The translations under genes were made by a program, and so were the position numbers. Of a stretch of DNA of 39,826 nucleotides, positions 1 through 39,826 are shown one piece after another (position 1 is the first letter of the stretch; the number at the start of each line of letters is the position of its first letter). The stretch is from a virus, in UHGV virus genome UHGV-0392477. The stretch is one strand, 5' to 3'. Under the pieces are notes generated by a model. That model was not told where the DNA came from and made no database searches. It was given only the letters and a program-made list of their open reading frames with translations.

Positions 1-60
1 AAGTAAATTATATCATTCCTGGAGCGTCCTGGCAAGGGGCGTATTTTTTATACCCAAAAA

Positions 61-96: not shown

Positions 97-1302
97 ATGG
101 GACAGTTAAGAACAAGGAAACGCGGATCCACCTGGGAATGGTCCTTTGAAGGGGCCAAAATTAATGGCAAGCGCAACCCCATCAGCCAGGGAGGGTACCG
201 CACCAAGGCCGAGGCCATCACTGCCGGCACCCAAGCCAAGGCCGAATACGACTCTGCCGGCCGCAGGTTTACCCCTTCGGACATTAGCATGTCCGATTAT
301 CTTGACTACTGGTACGAAAACTACGTCAAGACCAACCTTGCGCACAACACCCAGGTGGGCTATGAGCGTTTAATCCGTGTCCACCTCAAACCGGCATTTG
401 GGAAATACCGGCTGGCATCATTGGAGACCGATGTTATCCAAAAATGGATTGATGGAATGAAGCGTCAAGGCTATTCCAGGAGCATGGTTAAAAATACCTT
501 ATCCTGCCTGTCTGGTGCCCTGGGATATGCGGTATATCCCTGTAAATACATCAAGTATAATCCCTGTGATTATGCCAGGATACCGAAGATAGTTATGTCT
601 GAGAAGGCCAAGGCACACACAGAATATATCTGCGTCAAAGAGGACTTTGCAGCCATCATTGAGCGCTTTGGCCCGGACAGCAATTTCTATATGCCCCTCA
701 TGACTGGATACCACTGTGGCACCCGCCTGGGGGAGACTTATGGCATTGACTTGCTACATGACGTAGATTTTGAGCACCACACCATAACCGTCCGGCACCA
801 GCTTGCCAACGAGGGCGGAAAGTGGTATTACCGGCCGCCAAAATATGATTCTGTCCGGACTATAAAAATCCTACCAGAGTACGAGAAAATACTGAAAGCA
901 GAAATCCATAACCGCAAAAAGAACATGCTCCGGTACGGCCAGTATTTTACAAAGACGCATCAAATGGACGATGGCTTAATCTTTCAGGCTCCCGCCAACG
1001 TCAAAATTGTCGGAAAGGAAATAATGCCAATAAGCGCCAAAGAAAACGGCGAGTTGTTGACGCCATACTCTTTCAAGTACTGTGCCAAGGTCATCCATGA
1101 GGAACTGGGAAATCCTCTGTTCCACAGCCATTGCCTACGTCATACTCACGGCACGTTGTTGGCGGAGAATGGCGCCCAGCCCAAGACCGTCATGGAGCGC
1201 CTGGGCCACAAGGACATCAAGACCACCATGGACCGCTATGTGTTTAACACGGAGAAAATGCAGAACGATGCCATTGTAATCCTGGCAGACGCTATATCAT
1301 AG
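97..1302 (+). CDS. int: Tyrosine site-specific integrase with an N-terminal arm-type DNA-binding domain
   Basis: C-terminal catalytic motif HSHCLRHTHGTLLAENGAQPKTVMERLGHKDIKTTMDRYVF, i.e. the R..H-x-x-R..Y pattern of tyrosine recombinases. N-terminus is AP2-like. RBS AAGGAGG lies 8 nt before the ATG. Confidence 0.9.
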   Translation: MGQLRTRKRGSTWEWSFEGAKINGKRNPISQGGYRTKAEAITAGTQAKAEYDSAGRRFTPSDISMSDYLDYWYENYVKTNLAHNTQVGYERLIRVHLKPAFGKYRLASLETDVIQKWIDGMKRQGYSRSMVKNTLSCLSGALGYAVYPCKYIKYNPCDYARIPKIVMSEKAKAHTEYICVKEDFAAIIERFGPDSNFYMPLMTGYHCGTRLGETYGIDLLHDVDFEHHTITVRHQLANEGGKWYYRPPKYDSVRTIKILPEYEKILKAEIHNRKKNMLRYGQYFTKTHQMDDGLIFQAPANVKIVGKEIMPISAKENGELLTPYSFKYCAKVIHEELGNPLFHSHCLRHTHGTLLAENGAQPKTVMERLGHKDIKTTMDRYVFNTEKMQNDAIVILADAIS

Positions 1303-1896: not shown

Positions 1897-2685
1897 CTAC
1901 CACGTAAACACGTACCGTCGATTTACCATGTCGTACTCCTCCGCAATCCGGAGAGCTCCTCTGGCATCCGTAATCATGCACTTCCCCTCGTCAGACCCCT
2001 TGACTGGACAGAGCAGGAAGGCCTCACCAGCAGGGTCCACCTGGTAGCCGGTCAGCATGTACCCTTCGCTGTCAAACAGATACCATCCCCATGTCCTTCG
2101 CTCCATCTCCTGGAGCCAGTACCAGCCGTTGGCCGCATAGCTGCCGTCTGTAAACTGATACCACCAGCGCTGGCCGTCTGCGGCCGACTGGAAGCCCTGG
2201 GTGTATGTCACTGGGACCGGGGTATAGTCGATGTCGCAGAGCTTTAGGACCTTCTGCCAGGGTGTGACCGCCACTCTGGACTTGATGGTCCCGTAATTGA
2301 TGCCCTTGGCCTCAATGCAGTATCCATCACCTATGTATACCCCGATATGCCCCGGCTTCCAGAGCGCCCAGCCGGTCATGGACTCATTCAGGTGGTCGAT
2401 ATCTACCCGCTCCACGGCTGTGTCATGGTAGTTATAGCTGCCGCGGATACGTCCGGTGTACCAGCTGATGAGGCCAGAACAGTCCGTGCAGCGCTGGCCT
2501 ATGTACCTGGCCGCCTTGGCCTTGTAGGCGGATGTGTATGTGCCTGGGTTCTCCCGGGCGAGCCTGTCCAGGATGGTCGGGGTAAGGACCTCGCCTTTGG
2601 CGCCGTAGACATAGGGAGTTCCCAGTTTACCCTTACAGTGCTGTATTAATCCTGCTGATGTTTTACTCATAGTGTTTTCCTCCAA
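1897..2685 (-). CDS. Endolysin: NlpC/P60 endopeptidase with C-terminal cell-wall-binding (choline-binding-type GW/YW) repeats
   Basis: DCSGLISW catalytic Cys motif and a downstream His in WKPGHIGVYIGDG. C-terminal repeats WWYQFTDGSYAANGWYWL and GWYLFDSEGYMLTGY. RBS GGAGGAAAACACT precedes the ATG. Confidence 0.85.
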   Translation of the reverse strand: MEENTMSKTSAGLIQHCKGKLGTPYVYGAKGEVLTPTILDRLARENPGTYTSAYKAKAARYIGQRCTDCSGLISWYTGRIRGSYNYHDTAVERVDIDHLNESMTGWALWKPGHIGVYIGDGYCIEAKGINYGTIKSRVAVTPWQKVLKLCDIDYTPVPVTYTQGFQSAADGQRWWYQFTDGSYAANGWYWLQEMERRTWGWYLFDSEGYMLTGYQVDPAGEAFLLCPVKGSDEGKCMITDARGALRIAEEYDMVNRRYVFTW

Positions 2686-2726
2686 TTAAAAAATAAGGCC
2701 CGGGACCACTCCCAGGCCATGAAAAG

Positions 2727-2756
2727 TTGTGACGTCACAAGTTGCGATATCGCAAC
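2727..2756. promoter_or_regulatory. Two adjacent perfect palindromes, TTGTGACGTCACAA (2727-2740) and GTTGCGATATCGCAAC (2741-2756), in the holin-endolysin intergenic gap
   Basis: Direct read. The 115-nt gap between holin and endolysin is unusually long for a lysis cassette. Confidence 0.55.
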
Positions 2757-2800
2757 ACCCGCTTAACCCCGTGACCGGGAGATATACGGACCACCTTCTC

Positions 2801-3259
2801 TCAGGCATCCATTTTTGTCTTATCCTCCACTTGACCCTTAATCATCTTGGCCAGCGGCATTAAAAACGGTGGCATGGCCACACCGATATCCAGCAGATTC
2901 TCCAGGATAGAAATAATCTCATTACATATTAGCCACACGGCCACGATGGTAGCAACCACGAAGGGCAGTTTAATAGACAGTCCTACATACTGGCTGGCGT
3001 AATTAATCAGCACGTCCATAGCCCATCCTAAACCCACCAATATCCACATACCTATCTTCTTGACGATGCCCCACAGTCCCTTGTCACTGGTCACCAGCTC
3101 ATTGCGCCGTTTTGATGCCAGGATGCCGGTTATGTAGTCTGTGAAATTCAATCCGGCCAGTATCAACACTGGAACTGCCAGAATTCCCAGCCACCCAAAA
3201 ATCATGCTAAATGCTGCAACAAACGCTGCTTTCACCTTATCCATCTTCATATACCTCAC
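2801..3259 (-). CDS. Phage holin. Multi-TM, phi-LC3/holin_4-like
   Basis: Hydrophobic helices FVAAFSMIFGWLGILAVPVLILAGL and IGMWILVGLGWAMDVLI. Sits next to the endolysin. The true start is probably the ATG at 3250 (MKMDKVK), which has RBS GGTGAGG. Confidence 0.8.
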   Translation of the reverse strand: MRYMKMDKVKAAFVAAFSMIFGWLGILAVPVLILAGLNFTDYITGILASKRRNELVTSDKGLWGIVKKIGMWILVGLGWAMDVLINYASQYVGLSIKLPFVVATIVAVWLICNEIISILENLLDIGVAMPPFLMPLAKMIKGQVEDKTKMDA

Positions 3260-16319: not shown

Positions 16320-16457
16320 CGTCAATACCTCCATTTTAAGGGTGTCACCCTGTAATTTTTATTGCATCCATTGTCATCAGTGTCGCTGGCCACGCAGCAG
16401 TTTAAAGCCATGCTCGTGTTTGGGCGCAAAAATAGCACCCAGGATAATCCTGCGTGC

Positions 16458-16771
16458 TTATCGCAAATTATAACCCGTCCGTTTCATGTCTCTCGTTACA
16501 GCCTTAATGATTTCGTCTACATCCAGATGTGCTGTAACATCCGTGGAAACTTTCGTCACGGCCGGCTCGTAAGTTGCAAGGAAGATATCCGGCTTACACG
16601 GATATATCTCCCCAGCTATACCACGGATAATGTAATCCCCGATATTGGCTTCGTGTACCCCTTCCAGAGTCCGAATCATGAATTTCACTTCTGGGGTTCC
16701 CTCGTTTTCAAACCAGGCCCTCCCGTCCACTGGAATGCCTCAATTACCACTGGTTTTTTCCTGTACTTCAT
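16458..16771 (-). CDS. Conserved small phage protein (GDYIIRG..GE.YPCKPDIF family). It is split by a 1-nt frame disruption
   Basis: The ATG at 16771 has an excellent RBS (GGAAAGGAGC) and encodes MKYRKKPVVIEAFQWTG before stopping at 16685. The 90-aa track ORF (16458-16730) continues the same family in the -1 frame. The two frames join in the gggaggg run near 16716-16726. Confidence 0.55.
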
Positions 16772-16785
16772 TTATGCTCCTTTCC

Positions 16786-16801
16786 GTTGCGATATCGCAA
16801 C
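16786..16801. promoter_or_regulatory. Palindrome copy C (GTTGCGATATCGCAAC). Sits 14 nt upstream of the ATG at 16771 and downstream of an ACCACC..GGTGGT hairpin plus T-tract
   Basis: Direct read. Confidence 0.55.
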
Positions 16802-16835
16802 AAATAAAATACCACCGGCCATTAATGACTGGTGG

Positions 16836-17159
16836 TTATAATCCCGGTATTGTATCCTTTATTCCTTTTGCAAGGTTTGCTGCTTTCTTCATCAAAGTAT
16901 TTTCTTCCAGATATTCAAGGCCCTTCAACGTAATCTCAGGCCTTGTCAACGCCACCCTGGGGTATCCGCAGTCAAAGGCATTCCATGTCTGCCCACCTGT
17001 AATATACCCTTCATTCAACAGCATGGCCATTATACGGCTCCATTTCGGTACAGACAGTTCAAGTCTTTCAGCAGATAGGATTTCCCTATCTATTTCCTCG
17101 CAGTCCATTGATTTCTGAAGGATGCGGAGTATCTTATAAATCAACCGGAAATCATCCAT
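16836..17159 (-). CDS. YjcQ-family (winged-helix) phage protein
   Basis: MDDFRLIYKILRILQKS...EEIDREILSAERLELS..W.RIMAMLLNEGYI matches the YjcQ pattern. Confidence 0.65.
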   Translation of the reverse strand: MDDFRLIYKILRILQKSMDCEEIDREILSAERLELSVPKWSRIMAMLLNEGYITGGQTWNAFDCGYPRVALTRPEITLKGLEYLEENTLMKKAANLAKGIKDTIPGL

Positions 17160-22671: not shown

Positions 22672-22772
22672 CCGTGCTCACCTCCTTGCGTCAGTCAAAG
22701 AAAAGAACCCCAGACCTATAATAGCCTGGAGTCCCAGAAAGGAATTTACAATGTCAAATGTATCTGTCTGAA

Positions 22773-22846
22773 TAGCGGGGGCAGGATTTGAACCTGCGGC
22801 CTCCGGGTTATGGGCCCGGCGAGCTGCCAGACTGCTCTACCTCGCA
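22773..22846 (-). tRNA. Initiator-like tRNA-Met (anticodon CAT) with non-canonical positions
   Basis: Minus strand reads TGCGAGG-TA-GAGC-AGTCTGGCA-GCTC-G-CCGGG-CCCATAA-CCCGG-AGGCC-GCAGG-TTCAAAT-CCTGC-CCCCGCT-A. Three consecutive G:C pairs close the anticodon stem. There is a 1:72 mismatch. Strong identity to bacterial tRNA-fMet, but with C33 and an A5:C68 mismatch. Confidence 0.7.
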
Positions 22847-23141
22847 TCAATACCGGCCTATCGCCGGTATGGTCCAACTCACGCCGCGGTTGGCTTACGG
22901 ATACCTTGCACCAGTATGGTATCAACTGGGAGCTGCTCTCTATCCGATTTGCGAAGCTATGAAGAGGCAGGAGAACGTCAGCTTCTAATTAGCCACCAGG
23001 CTGTAACGCCTGGTAGCCGTTATTTGTGGGGAGGATGCAAAATCAATCAGCTTTCCGCTTCATCCAATTCTGCATATTACAATTATAAATCGTCCAAAAG
23101 GACTTATCAAGGACATCATTTTGACGCAGTTTGTCAAGCCC

Positions 23142-23726
23142 TTAATCAAGCATAATTGCATCCGCTCCAAACAGATATATGCTCAGTATCCCAGTGAGCT
23201 CCGTCACCCACCGTCTTGCCGTTCTATCTGAACAATTCAAAAGCTCTCCAATTTCGTTAGGCTCCATACCATCAAAGTACCTATACTTAAAAGCCAGATA
23301 CTTCTCATGCGTATTCTTCCGACACTCCTCATCCTCCAGGAGCTTCAAACACTTGTCTATGTGTCCTATCATGACAATACTCCGGAGCTTGCTCTTGAGG
23401 ATACTGTTGATAAAGATATCTTCCTCTGTGAACTCCTCCAGTTCATCGCCATTATCCATGTCGGACAGTTCTGCCACTCCCTCCTCCACGCTCTGACAGA
23501 TGCGGTTATAATTCTCCATCAGCTTCTTGGTGTTCTGGAATACCTTTATTCTCTTTTCCCTCCGGAGTTGCTTCTCATGCTCCTTAAGGGCTTCCCTTGC
23601 GGCCAGCCTGGCCACTTCCTCCAATGCTACCGTCTGTTTCACCGGCATCACCTCCTCCCGCATCCAGGTACGGGCACGCCCAGCACCCGTACCGTATCCT
23701 GCCCTTGTTGTTGCGCTGGCCATCAC
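23142..23726 (-). CDS. ArpU-family (sigma-70 region-4-like) late gene transcriptional activator
   Basis: Sits upstream of terS. C-terminal EPNEIGELLNCSDRTARRWVTELTGIL is an HTH. The real start is probably internal (ATG at about 23648-23663, preceded by GGGAGGAGG). Confidence 0.65.
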   Translation of the reverse strand: MMASATTRAGYGTGAGRARTWMREEVMPVKQTVALEEVARLAAREALKEHEKQLRREKRIKVFQNTKKLMENYNRICQSVEEGVAELSDMDNGDELEEFTEEDIFINSILKSKLRSIVMIGHIDKCLKLLEDEECRKNTHEKYLAFKYRYFDGMEPNEIGELLNCSDRTARRWVTELTGILSIYLFGADAIMLD

Positions 23727-35943: not shown

Positions 35944-36183
35944 CTATTTTGCCTTTTTTCTCAGATCATCCAACGCAGTAAGGTATAACGCCTGAAGGGT
36001 CGAAGCCTGGTCTTCTATATCATCACTGGATAGCGCTTTTGAAACACCTGAAAGAATAGTAACTGTAAGAGCAACGACGTCTACATAATTGCCCCGTATC
36101 GTTGTCTCAGCTTTCTCCCCGTGCGCTTCAATCCCTACGGTGGGTACATTCTTTTCAGCTTTAATCATTGATTTTTCCTCCAT
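35944..36183 (-). CDS. Hypothetical protein (79 aa)
   Basis: ORF. Confidence 0.45.
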   Translation of the reverse strand: MEEKSMIKAEKNVPTVGIEAHGEKAETTIRGNYVDVVALTVTILSGVSKALSSDDIEDQASTLQALYLTALDDLRKKAK

Positions 36184-36505: not shown

Positions 36506-36775
36506 TCAAAGTCTCACGCCCATGGCCAGCGCCATGACCACAGTTGCTGCAACCACCATTCCGAACATCCAAAAAGTTGCTATGATAATCCATCTCGCTG
36601 CCGTCATTAGGGGATGCTCGTCCCGGCGTCTCCTGCGCTGTCGGAAGGTCACCATACGCCTGTGCCCCATGATGTTGGTGAGTACCGCTGTTCCTGGCCC
36701 GGTGATGTCCACACGCCAGCCAGGATACTGGACCGCTGCTTTGGCGCGGATGGCTAACTCAGTTACTTTTGTCAT
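36506..36775 (-). CDS. Small membrane protein (C-terminal TM helix after an Arg cluster)
   Basis: Start at 36775 with RBS GGGAGGG. RRRRRDEHPLMTAARWIIIATFWMFGMVVAATVVMALAMGV. Confidence 0.5.
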   Translation of the reverse strand: MTKVTELAIRAKAAVQYPGWRVDITGPGTAVLTNIMGHRRMVTFRQRRRRRDEHPLMTAARWIIIATFWMFGMVVAATVVMALAMGVRL

Positions 36776-36971
36776 TGGCTTGTCCCTCCCCTTGGAATAC
36801 TGGATAATCTTCAATGAATTGCTCCAAATCGCTTCCCCGAATCTTTATCCGCCCCAGTTTTAATGCTCGCAGGCTCCCTTTTCTAATCAGGCTATACACG
36901 GTATCCGTGTTCGTCATAAGTACGGTTGCTGTTTCCTCCACCGTGTACAACGGTTTGTATGGTTCTACCAT
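36759..36971 (-). CDS. Excisionase/MerR-type HTH DNA-binding protein
   Basis: YTVEETATVLMTNTDTVYSLIRKGSLRALKLGRIKIRGSDLEQFIE. Start at 36971 with AAAGGAGG. Confidence 0.6.
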   Translation of the reverse strand: MVEPYKPLYTVEETATVLMTNTDTVYSLIRKGSLRALKLGRIKIRGSDLEQFIEDYPVFQGEGQANDKSN

Positions 36972-37031
36972 TTTCCACATCCTCCTTTCTTTTCCCATTG
37001 ACACACGCATGTGATAGTGGTATAGTTGCTT

Positions 37032-37280
37032 TCATCGAACATGCGTTTGTTTTTTGTAATTGAGCAAGAACTCAAAGGATACTTCAAGGGATTTGCAAAT
37101 TGTTGCTACTTCATCCGCATATATGCGCCTTCCTCCACTTAAAATTCTGGAAAAAGTATCTCTTCTTATGCCTGATTTATCTGCTACCGAAGTGCTTTTA
37201 ATAAGCTTATCTTTCATGTATAAATTCAGGCCATCTCTAAATTCTTTTTCGTAGATTTGCACATCCTGCAATTTTTTCAC
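37032..37280 (-). CDS. Cro-like XRE-family HTH regulator, the first lytic-direction gene
   Basis: HTH LIKSTSVADKSGIRRDTFSRILSGG. Divergent from the repressor gene. Confidence 0.7.
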   Translation of the reverse strand: MKKLQDVQIYEKEFRDGLNLYMKDKLIKSTSVADKSGIRRDTFSRILSGGRRIYADEVATICKSLEVSFEFLLNYKKQTHVR

Positions 37281-37291
37281 CTCCTTCTAAA

Positions 37292-37402
37292 CAACATTTT
37301 GTTGTGTAAGCCAATATTACTACACGTTTTGTTGTTTGTCAAGCATCAACTCAACATTTTGTTGTTTTTATTATTGACGTTTCAACATCAATGTTGTATA
37401 AT
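37292..37402. promoter_or_regulatory. Genetic switch: divergent promoters with four CAACA-N3/4-TGTTG operator palindromes
   Basis: Operators at 37292-37304, 37322-37334 (imperfect), 37352-37364 and 37383-37396. Plus-strand promoter TTGACG (37374-37379), 17 nt, TATAAT (37397-37402). Minus-strand promoter TTGACA (37336-37341), 17 nt, TAATAT (37313-37318). Confidence 0.6.
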
Positions 37403-37426: not shown

Positions 37427-37753
37427 ATGTCTAAGGAAGAGATTGCTTCAAAGTTAAGAACAGCACGAGAAAAGGCAGGATATAAGCAAGAAGATATAGC
37501 CAATATTTTGGGCGTTACACCGCAAAAAGTCAGTAGCTTTGAGACTGGCAGAACGCGCGTGGACGTTGATACTTTGGTGACATTATGTAAGCTATACAAT
37601 GTGGACGCCAATGATATTATGGGCATAGCTCCACCAGAAAAAAATCCTCTTGATAGGCTTATCACTGTGTATACTCGTAGTAGGAAGAACCTCTCTCAAG
37701 AAGAAAAAATGAGACTTGCTCGTATCATATTATCAGATGATGACGAGGAGTAA
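37427..37753 (+). CDS. XRE-family repressor (ImmR/cI-like, no peptidase domain)
   Basis: HTH KQEDIANILGVTPQKVSSFETG. Followed by ImmA. Confidence 0.75.
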   Translation: MSKEEIASKLRTAREKAGYKQEDIANILGVTPQKVSSFETGRTRVDVDTLVTLCKLYNVDANDIMGIAPPEKNPLDRLITVYTRSRKNLSQEEKMRLARIILSDDDEE

Positions 37754-37759
37754 TATCAA

Positions 37760-38449
37760 ATGGATTATCAAAGCCTATATGACAGTATTTTATACGCATA
37801 TACGTTTTTTGGCATTGACTCATTTCCAGTAGACTGCTTCGAATTAGTGCGGAAATGTGGTTTCAGAACTGTGAAATATACGGACTTAAGTGATAAGAAG
37901 AGAATAGCCTGTCGAACCCTTAGCGAAGATGCCTGCCTTTTGGATGGAACATTGTTTTATGAGGCTAAAGCCCATTCGCGACGGATACAATTTACAATAG
38001 CACATGAATTTGGGCATGTGTTCTTGAAAACAGACAATGAGGACAAAGCTGATGAATTTGCCAGCCATTTTTTAGCACCACGTATTCTTATTCACAAATA
38101 TAAATGTCATGACGCAATCCAGATACATGATACTTTTGGTCTGTCCTATCAGGCATCTAACAGAGCCTTGATGTCCTATAAGGAATGGTTCCGCAATATT
38201 TCCTACAGCGCAACGAGGAATCCCACGGAGCCAGAGTTGGAGCTGGAGCAAATATTCTTCCCGGAGCAGGAAGAAGCACCGGCCATTATGGTTGAGAAGC
38301 AGATGAAATCTGTCAAGAGCTGCCGTAGACAGCGACTACGCAGGGAATTGGATGAGCGTTCTTCCTTTATGGAATACTTGCGTAATCAACGTGAAAACTA
38401 TGATTTTGAGCTGGCAGAACGCCAGTATCTATATGGAAATGACTTATAA
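37760..38449 (+). CDS. ImmA/IrrE-family metallopeptidase (anti-repressor protease)
   Basis: HEFGHVF HExxH motif. Sits next to the repressor. Confidence 0.75.
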   Translation: MDYQSLYDSILYAYTFFGIDSFPVDCFELVRKCGFRTVKYTDLSDKKRIACRTLSEDACLLDGTLFYEAKAHSRRIQFTIAHEFGHVFLKTDNEDKADEFASHFLAPRILIHKYKCHDAIQIHDTFGLSYQASNRALMSYKEWFRNISYSATRNPTEPELELEQIFFPEQEEAPAIMVEKQMKSVKSCRRQRLRRELDERSSFMEYLRNQRENYDFELAERQYLYGNDL

Positions 38450-39735: not shown

Positions 39736-39744
39736 ATTATAAGC

Positions 39745-39780
39745 AAAAAGCCCCTGTGCTGGTAACACAAGAGCTTTTCA
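39745..39780 (+). terminator. Putative intrinsic terminator after the moron genes
   Basis: AAAAGC..GCTTTT stem around an internal stem, then a T-rich tail. Confidence 0.4.
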
Positions 39781-39826
39781 CATAATTCTCTTACCGGACT
39801 GCTCCGGAAGATATAATACCTTAAAC

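Follow-up and report, generated by a model that had tools for sequence, protein, structure and literature searches.

A 16-bp palindrome, GTTGCGATATCGCAAC, is repeated in the 39,826-nt viral genome UHGV-0392477 (the window, meaning the whole stretch of DNA that we analysed), and the same site stands in front of unrelated genes in many prophages of Lachnospiraceae. A plausible, still tentative, reading is that the 16-mer is a portable operator-like site, with core TTGCG-N4-CGCAA, for a dimeric sequence-specific DNA-binding protein. Here we document its distribution, architecture, conservation pattern, reassortment and presence/absence polymorphism, and we infer that it is read at the DNA level with a roadblock or repressor effect.

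A search of the window with up to three mismatches returned exactly three matches to the 16-mer against an expectation of 0.10, and three were reached in none of 100 shuffles, so that the statement of a first-pass annotation that three copies lie far beyond chance is borne out. The palindrome is perfect at 2741-2756 (copy 2) and 16786-16801 (copy 3), and copy 1 (61-76, GTTGCGATGTCGCAAC) carries a single central mismatch that makes its centre ATGT. A related palindrome, TTGTGACGTCACAA (pal2, 2727-2740), abuts copy 2 and has the half-site TTGTG rather than TTGCG; beside the 16-mer it is found in 16 unique contexts. A relaxed scan of the whole window for TTGYR-N4-YRCAA gave no sites beyond these four. 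All of them are intergenic, which makes this a multi-copy short conserved motif across the phage genome. The genes adjoining copies 2 and 3, along with nearly all others between 1897 and 37280, lie on the minus strand. Read in the direction of the gene, copies 1 and 3 are arranged alike, with terminator-like hairpin and T-run, palindrome, SD and ATG in that order. The earlier annotation had placed all copies next to gene starts. This is correct for copies 1 and 3, including the distances given (20 nt to the int ATG and 14 nt to a minus-strand ATG), but the endolysin ATG lies 70 nt beyond copy 2, on the far side of a terminator. The centre GATATC occurs 24 times in the window against 24 expected and GACGTC is likewise at its expected frequency; a restriction-site artefact, which the annotation had raised as one way to dismiss the motif, was therefore rejected, GATATC being neither avoided nor enriched. 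GATC, by a maximal-order Markov estimate, is strongly avoided in the window (16 observed, ~151 expected).

The window is the genome of a temperate siphophage in circular permutation, and its two ends run together in a Clostridium sp. contig and in an IMG/VR contig. Positions 1-96 and 39736-39826 together form one 187-nt intergenic region, contiguous in loci L125 and L048, and copy 1 lies within it, upstream of the ATG (97) of the tyrosine integrase gene int (97..1302, plus strand, from the ORF listing and Pfam scan). Upstream of copy 1 is a terminator-like hairpin (24-42) with a T-run (24..51 as a unit, plus strand). The hairpin also carries the -35 box of a strong sigma-70-like promoter, TTGCCA-17-TGaTATAAT (35..7, minus strand), which forms part of a conserved block with copy 1. 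It is the only strong promoter nearby and is directed away from int; it is kept in relatives that do not have the palindrome, and the spacing from palindrome to -35 box varies from 24 to 31 nt. Given this variable spacing, and a palindrome centre just 21-30 nt from the ATG, a class I or II activator site for either the divergent promoter or the downstream gene was rejected. The divergent promoter would yield an RNA of ~85 nt (7-35 on the minus strand and 39743-39826) ending at a bidirectional terminator (39781..39743), and both its hairpin CTTCCGGAnnnnTCCGGTAAG and this terminator are conserved in L125 and L048. The RNA is a small-RNA candidate, antisense to any read-through of the lysogeny operon into int. 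It had no Rfam match, and pairing with the palindrome-bearing leaders was discarded since the duplex energies were inside the shuffled range. On the other side of int, attP is probably located within 1303-1620, where GGTAGGCAA motifs are repeated, and a 12-bp inverted repeat, gccttgcctacc/ggtaggcaaggc, immediately follows the int stop codon.

Copy 2 lies in the gap between the holin gene upstream (Phage_holin_4_1 by Pfam scan; 2801..3259, minus strand) and the endolysin gene downstream (1897..2670, minus strand; ATG 2670-2668). This gap measures 130 nt rather than the 115 nt first given. The order of elements is holin stop, a conserved 44-nt element, palindrome, pal2, a strong intrinsic terminator, SD and endolysin ATG. 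The terminator (2687..2718, minus strand) consists of a 9-bp stem with 7 GC pairs, TTATTTTTT (2718..2697), and a T-run, and it separates pal2 from the endolysin SD (2683..2679); copy 2 thus does not adjoin an SD as had been proposed. Across eight phages, the terminator stem shows compensatory changes between GC and AU at two pairs, and both palindromes are invariant in the same alignment. The 44-nt element (2757-2800, minus strand), which runs from the holin stop to the palindrome, is non-coding, conserved and common to ~10 phages. It contains an SD-like GGAGGTGG whose predicted pairing partner is ATATCTCC; a small hairpin, showing some covariation, comes next.

Copy 3 precedes the ATG (16771-16769, minus strand) of a gene of the phrog_419 family (16458..16771, minus strand). 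Directly upstream of the palindrome is a terminator-like hairpin, ACCACCAGTC..GGCCGGTGGT (16835..16811), with a T-run (16810..16802; 16802..16835 as a unit, minus strand), and the hairpin is conserved as part of a ~55-nt unit. The gene had been described as a frameshifted head-module gene. It is actually an accessory cassette that has lost 55 nt between short direct repeats relative to the intact 113-aa homologue in L012, which makes it a pseudogene and not a case of programmed frameshifting. Its 3' terminator (16428..16457, minus strand; hairpin 16457..16435, T-run 16434..16428) is the sole element left at "empty" hot spots such as that of L343. Terminators flank the cassette on both sides (16835..16802 and 16457..16428), and a promoter search of the cassette found none. 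The scaffold gene follows the cassette, and a YjcQ-like gene (16836-17159, minus strand, from the ORF listing and Pfam scan) lies upstream. No HTH regulator co-encoded downstream of copy 3 in the same operon was found.

The annotation had set each copy between its likely promoter and the SD. No sigma-70-like promoter was found on the gene strand between the upstream terminators and the SD at any copy, and thus none between the terminator-like hairpins and the palindrome; this part of the description is not supported. Nor does the palindrome itself resemble either signal. Its centre GATATC has C at -7, and no -35 is conserved among the contexts. By terminator criteria only copy 1 fits, and on the minus strand only, where TTTTTGGG follows it antisense to int; what follows copies 2 and 3 is pal2 or GGAAAGGAG. 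Int is the last gene in an ImmR-ImmA-...-int array, comparable to the immR-immA-int array of ICEBs1, and the cassette and endolysin belong to the late operon. Every copy is thus found next to terminators, at a junction internal to a polycistronic unit.

The immunity region encodes an ImmR-like XRE repressor (37427-37753), ImmA (37760-38449), a Cro-like HTH protein (37032-37280) and an HTH_17 excisionase-like protein (36759-37010). Its operators are CAACATTTTGTTG at 37292 and 37352, with variants at 37323 and 37376, and they lie between the divergent promoters of the switch (37290-37400), TTGACG-17-TATAAT on the plus strand and TTGACA-17-TAATAT on the minus strand. The ImmR/Cro region contains no palindrome copy, and the claim that the palindrome is distinct from the cI/cro operators holds. 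Further along the genome, a 194-aa sigma-like protein (phrog_1558, 23142-23726) is encoded just upstream of terS. A near-consensus promoter, TTGATA-17-TATAAT (23110..23082, minus strand), also lies upstream of terS; behind it come a structured leader, tRNA-Met (22773-22846) and a terminator with a 13-bp stem (22735..22704) that abuts the terS SD. This layout is similar to that of lambda PR'-tR' and suggests that late transcription depends on antitermination, which would account for terminators being tolerated within the late operon. A run of ~12 G at ~35945-35956, between two early genes and after the stop of a 79-aa gene, could be slippage-prone or an assembly artefact.

Outside the window, the exact 16-mer is present in at least 120 IMG/VR stretches and at least 120 stretches of a species-dereplicated genome set. 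Roughly 44 of 120 sampled genome matches belong to Enterocloster, Hungatella, Lacrimispora, [Clostridium] clostridioforme and other Lachnospiraceae/Clostridia, and all of these are prophage-like and in phage-type layouts. The other sampled matches are scattered in unrelated, mostly high-GC taxa without a phage-type layout. By chance, a scan of ~596 Gb should return 596e9/4^16, or ~139-140, matches in the genome set. A common host repeat, the other ground on which the annotation would have set the motif aside, was rejected for the exact 16-mer, since the matches in unrelated taxa come to about the chance number and those in Lachnospiraceae all look prophage-borne. The motif scan of relatives that it had advised thus finds the 16-mer widespread in related prophages. 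The motif is absent from the cultured phages of INPHARED and was not found in the literature searched. Rfam 15 returned nothing at the palindrome sites even at E <= 1, and only tRNA-Met in the window.

Layouts were classified for the 98 unique IMG/VR sites with enough flank. The order palindrome, SD and start within 32 nt is seen at 44, and 27 of these have a terminator-like hairpin and T-run directly upstream. Another 25-32 sites have the palindrome or palindromes followed by terminator, SD and start, 8 lie inside long ORFs (coding VAISQ), and 14 are of other types. Genes behind the palindrome include those for the phrog_419 protein, DUF4406 (nucleoside deoxyribosyltransferase-like), DUF6275 and an ORF6N protein, as well as a 25-aa hydrophobic peptide and a tail-fibre gene pair. 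One cassette family is Tad2-like (PF11195, 2e-21), and most other cassettes have no assigned function. The palindrome unit precedes at least seven integrase families, and in the lysis gap, behind a terminator, at least six endolysin families. The 25-aa peptide, MTPAVQITAIICLTLIILCWNGKKK, recurs behind the palindrome in L251, L255, L257, L261, L267 and L006, has an apparent ATA start in L056/L118, and may be a small membrane toxin or exclusion peptide.

The site is also found in a satellite-like module (L118/L063) with the order promoter, Cro-like gene, 110 nt, pal2, pal1, SD, 60-aa gene, HTH_17 and primase. The module is PICI-type (L118 1684-6054, L063 2625-5655), adjoins head genes and includes an integrase, an XRE repressor and a 620-aa primase. 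On contig 119806, the late operon seems to stop at the head-tail genes, and this may be a capsid-forming satellite. Relative to transcription, the main palindrome (pal1) precedes pal2 in the holin-endolysin gap and follows it in the satellite-like module. As the pair occurs in both orders, its function is independent of orientation.

The genes on either side of the site are reassorted. When 56 head-type sites were clustered by 100 nt of the upstream gene and 100 nt of the downstream gene, 18 upstream and 12 downstream clusters were found in 27 combinations, and one upstream gene joins four different cassettes. Breakpoints of the mosaic fall inside a 31-nt identical stretch made up of the T-run, the palindrome and GGAAAG. 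DUF4406 cassettes are found at both head and lysis hot spots. We also sampled loci without reference to the motif, choosing relatives by minor capsid protein (53-90% identity), endolysin or integrase. The site is present at the homologous hot spot in 55 of the 72 relatives chosen by minor capsid (one mismatch at most), upstream of 44 of 69 endolysin relatives and in 16 of 33 relatives of this integrase (both with up to two mismatches), and in such loci it persists at protein identities as low as 55%. Where a hot spot has no cassette, the palindrome is missing too, with the 3' terminator alone remaining, and integrases that are 95-97% identical occur both with and without the site. The empty hot spots and the integrase polymorphism indicate that the site is associated with the cassette and dispensable.

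The pattern of substitutions bears on whether the palindrome is read as DNA or as RNA. Across the motif-blind samples, the arms TTGCG and CGCAA are conserved in sequence, and the variants seen are single uncompensated changes (G1->A/T, C16->T, G6->A, G12->A, C11->T, A15->G). On the sense strand, the arm variants at positions 6, 11 and 12 create an A.C mismatch twice (G6->A, G12->A) and a G.U wobble once (C11->T); GTTGCAATATCGCAAC, GTTGCGATATCACAAC and GTTGTAATATCACAAC are examples that create A.C. The centres seen are ATAT, ATGT, ACGT and AGAT, and dyad symmetry is not strictly kept there. An argument that a self-complementary centre proves a DNA dyad was weakened accordingly, as motif-blind sampling gave ATGT and AGAT beside ATAT and ACGT. 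Related palindromes differ by transitions at arm positions 4-5 (TTGTG-ACGT-CACAA, TTGTA-ACGT-TACAA and TTGCA-CCGG-TGCAA), with asymmetric mixtures such as GTTGTAATATCACAAC; they stand in tandem with the main one at a centre spacing of 15-18 bp and have the half-site TTGYR in common. The conserved arms, the uncompensated variants and the tandem TTGYR half-sites favour a dimer that reads duplex DNA with 5-4-5 geometry.

The first-pass annotation had offered both an operator for a dimeric regulator and a role at the RNA level. The conservation pattern fits the dimeric sequence-specific protein of the former, but not with the promoter that an operator at these copies was thought to accompany, since no sigma-70 promoter was found there. 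An RNA-level element, whether a hairpin 5' of the SD that acts as a 5' stabiliser after cleavage in the U/A tract or a target of a translational regulator on the model of Aca2 or lambda N/boxB, seems to us rather unlikely, though it has several features on its side. The 6-bp hairpin with its tetraloop is indeed predicted in all three contexts (-6.9 kcal/mol alone), the region of copy 3 has a folding z of -3.7, and at 44 of 98 sites the palindrome is 3-12 nt from the SD. RNase Y-type processing sites likewise have the order AU-rich tract, hairpin, SD. However, more than 170 motif-blind loci include no compensatory arm changes, which the adjacent terminator does have, and A.C mismatches arise from several of the sense-strand variants. 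At the lysis junction, over 50 nt, terminator included, separate the hairpin from the SD, and there is no Rfam family match. Strict sequence conservation would also result from an RNA hairpin bound by protein, as with boxB and the 5'UTR hairpins of Aca2, and HTH regulators that bind both an inverted repeat and a 5'UTR hairpin are documented (PMC13551039).

The reassortment raises the possibility that the ~55-nt unit of hairpin, T-run, palindrome and SD serves mainly as shared homology for exchanging cassettes, integrases and lysis genes among co-resident phages and satellites or, less likely, as the target of a site-specific enzyme. The 27 combinations with breakpoints in the 31-nt identity agree with such a recombination linker, as do the joining of the same upstream block to at least seven integrase families, the variety of endolysins behind the lysis-gap palindrome, the DUF4406 cassettes at two hot spots, the empty sites without a palindrome and the polymorphism among close relatives. 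The phage also encodes a single-strand-annealing-type recombination module (Enc34 SSB, DUF2800 nuclease and VRR-NUC). Nevertheless, we consider this explanation unlikely. Sixteen bases are very short for homologous exchange, no dedicated recombinase co-occurs, and since homology extends beyond the palindrome on both sides, crossovers need not fall in it. Selection for evolvability alone does not explain the conservation of a letter-perfect palindrome. An integron attC site is a 57-141-nt imperfect palindrome with RYYYAAC ... GTTRRRY cores, recognised by an IntI-type integrase. That identity was rejected, as GTTGCGA of the 16-mer has C at an R position and the integrases are ordinary phage types of several families. 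It is very unlikely that the palindrome is instead a promoter element for a non-sigma-A holoenzyme or an activator, with the centre TGcGATATC taken for a -10-like box of the extended type (in SPO1, the late -10 box is GATATT) and a start a few nucleotides past the palindrome. Such a start would leave a 12-20-nt leader containing the SD, terminators, and no sigma-70 promoter, precede the genes behind the site, and a sigma-like protein is encoded just upstream of terS. Yet C at -7 is incompatible with sigma-A, the contexts share no conserved -35, and the sigma-like protein is missing from several palindrome-bearing phages. Moreover, a terminator immediately follows the site in the lysis context, and the site is not upstream of terS, where a late promoter would be expected.

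We sought the protein that would bind the operator-like site among the products of these phages. YjcQ, named as a candidate from its adjacency to copy 3, is not favoured by that adjacency, as it is the upstream gene in 1 of 18 upstream clusters, and 11 of 69 homologous hot-spot regions contain it. ImmR was rejected because its operator CAACATTTTGTTG differs from the palindrome and palindrome-bearing phages carry unrelated immunity genes. The sigma-like phrog_1558 protein is probably not the binder; it is absent from several palindrome-bearing phages with ample sequence upstream of terL, and no motif was found upstream of terS. HTH_17 as a shared binder was set aside because the window and satellite copies are not detectably similar, and a ParB/parS system because no ParB is encoded. 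The binder may be a protein of the host or one that these phages encode elsewhere.

The operator-like site is common to many Lachnospiraceae prophages and at least one satellite-like element, and it forms part of the 5' boundary of exchangeable modules, namely accessory or counter-defence cassettes, integrases and the lysis cassette. In the mechanism that we propose, placed inside polycistronic operons, beside intrinsic terminators and just upstream of the SD, it would be occupied by a protein that acts on transcription crossing the junction. This protein might serve as a roadblock or insulator working together with the adjacent terminator, or a weak, unrecognised start site might be overlaid by an operator here. 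In both cases, control of the downstream module would be separate from that of the surrounding operon. Against this mechanism count the dispensability of the site, the variation at its centre and its copy number, which is well below that of stoperators or SPBRE, and no promoter was recognised near it such as a classical operator would accompany. The same site being kept in many phages, it may double as a preferred crossover point and so give rise to mosaic junctions. A bolder proposal, which we regard as quite improbable, is that gut Lachnospiraceae phages have a cassette system whose cis signature is the palindrome, and that one shared host or helper-phage factor reads TTGCG-N4-CGCAA, controls and perhaps mobilises the modules, and couples satellite-like elements (L118/L063) to their helpers. 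Were that true, new counter-defence genes could be searched for by "palindrome + SD". Should the site be a shared control point, a single factor would tune integration, lysis and counter-defence across prophages and satellites in abundant human-gut Clostridia, and would offer a handle on prophage induction and phage-satellite cross-talk. Whatever the mechanism, the motif with an SD marks the starts of exchangeable accessory genes, one of them Tad2-like, and can therefore be used to mine metagenomes for counter-defence and host-interaction genes as aca genes have been for anti-CRISPRs. The palindrome unit is also an unusually clean natural case of a conserved linker at phage mosaic junctions.

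Several known systems resemble the palindrome in part. In Aca-controlled systems, small counter-defence genes inserted among structural genes have inverted repeats near their SD. Some of these repeats are recognised as DNA and also as hairpins in the 5'UTR, and counter-defence operons nearby bear the motifs too (PMC9410906, PMC13551039). Aca sites overlap a strong promoter and have the regulator gene downstream in the same operon (PMC9410906, PMC13551039). The position near the SD is shared by the palindrome, and a Tad2-like gene is among the cassettes here. The palindrome, however, has neither an overlapping promoter nor a co-encoded regulator, and it also precedes integrases and lysis genes. 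Morons are extra genes between late genes with their own promoter and terminator, reportedly described by Hendrix and colleagues, and Arbiol et al. are said to have found in 2010 T4 PeSL cassettes, conserved short promoter/stem-loop units at mosaic junctions. Extra genes among late genes with regulatory signals and terminators around them are what we see as well, but the moron and PeSL units have a recognisable promoter; here none is detectable and the conserved element is a perfect palindrome. CRP/FNR-type proteins use 5-4-5 operators such as TTGAT-N4-ATCAA. The TTGYR-N4-YRCAA geometry, a 14-bp dyad with a tolerant centre, is the same and serves as a lead only. No such protein is encoded in the window, and a class II activator centred at -41.5 is incompatible with where the palindrome lies before gene starts.

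Closer are the dispersed repeats of temperate phages. SPBRE is a short conserved element repeated in intergenic and promoter regions of SPbeta in ~10 copies and bound by the master repressor MrpR, and computational analysis had picked it out long before the binding protein was known (PMC10516654). Both are short elements of Firmicute prophages that lie in intergenic regions upstream of several unrelated genes. The palindrome, by comparison, has 3-4 copies per genome and no recognisable promoter, differs from the immunity operators, and is common to phages with different immunity modules. Stoperators of mycobacteriophages are repressor sites scattered in operons, often in short intergenic gaps, that stop elongating RNA polymerase (PMC9283540). 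They are asymmetric 13-mers read by a monomer, depend on orientation, number 20-30 per genome and match the early-promoter operator (PMC9283540). Halting of elongation is the mechanism proposed for the palindrome too, although it is a symmetric 14-16-mer in few copies and unrelated to the immunity operators. The palindrome thus has the multiple copies typical of the class that holds phiC31 CIR, SPBRE and the stoperators, and it does not have the identity with the immunity operator. By analogy, the closest kind would be the dispersed phage operator repeats, of which the palindrome may represent a portable operator-like version situated at module junctions.
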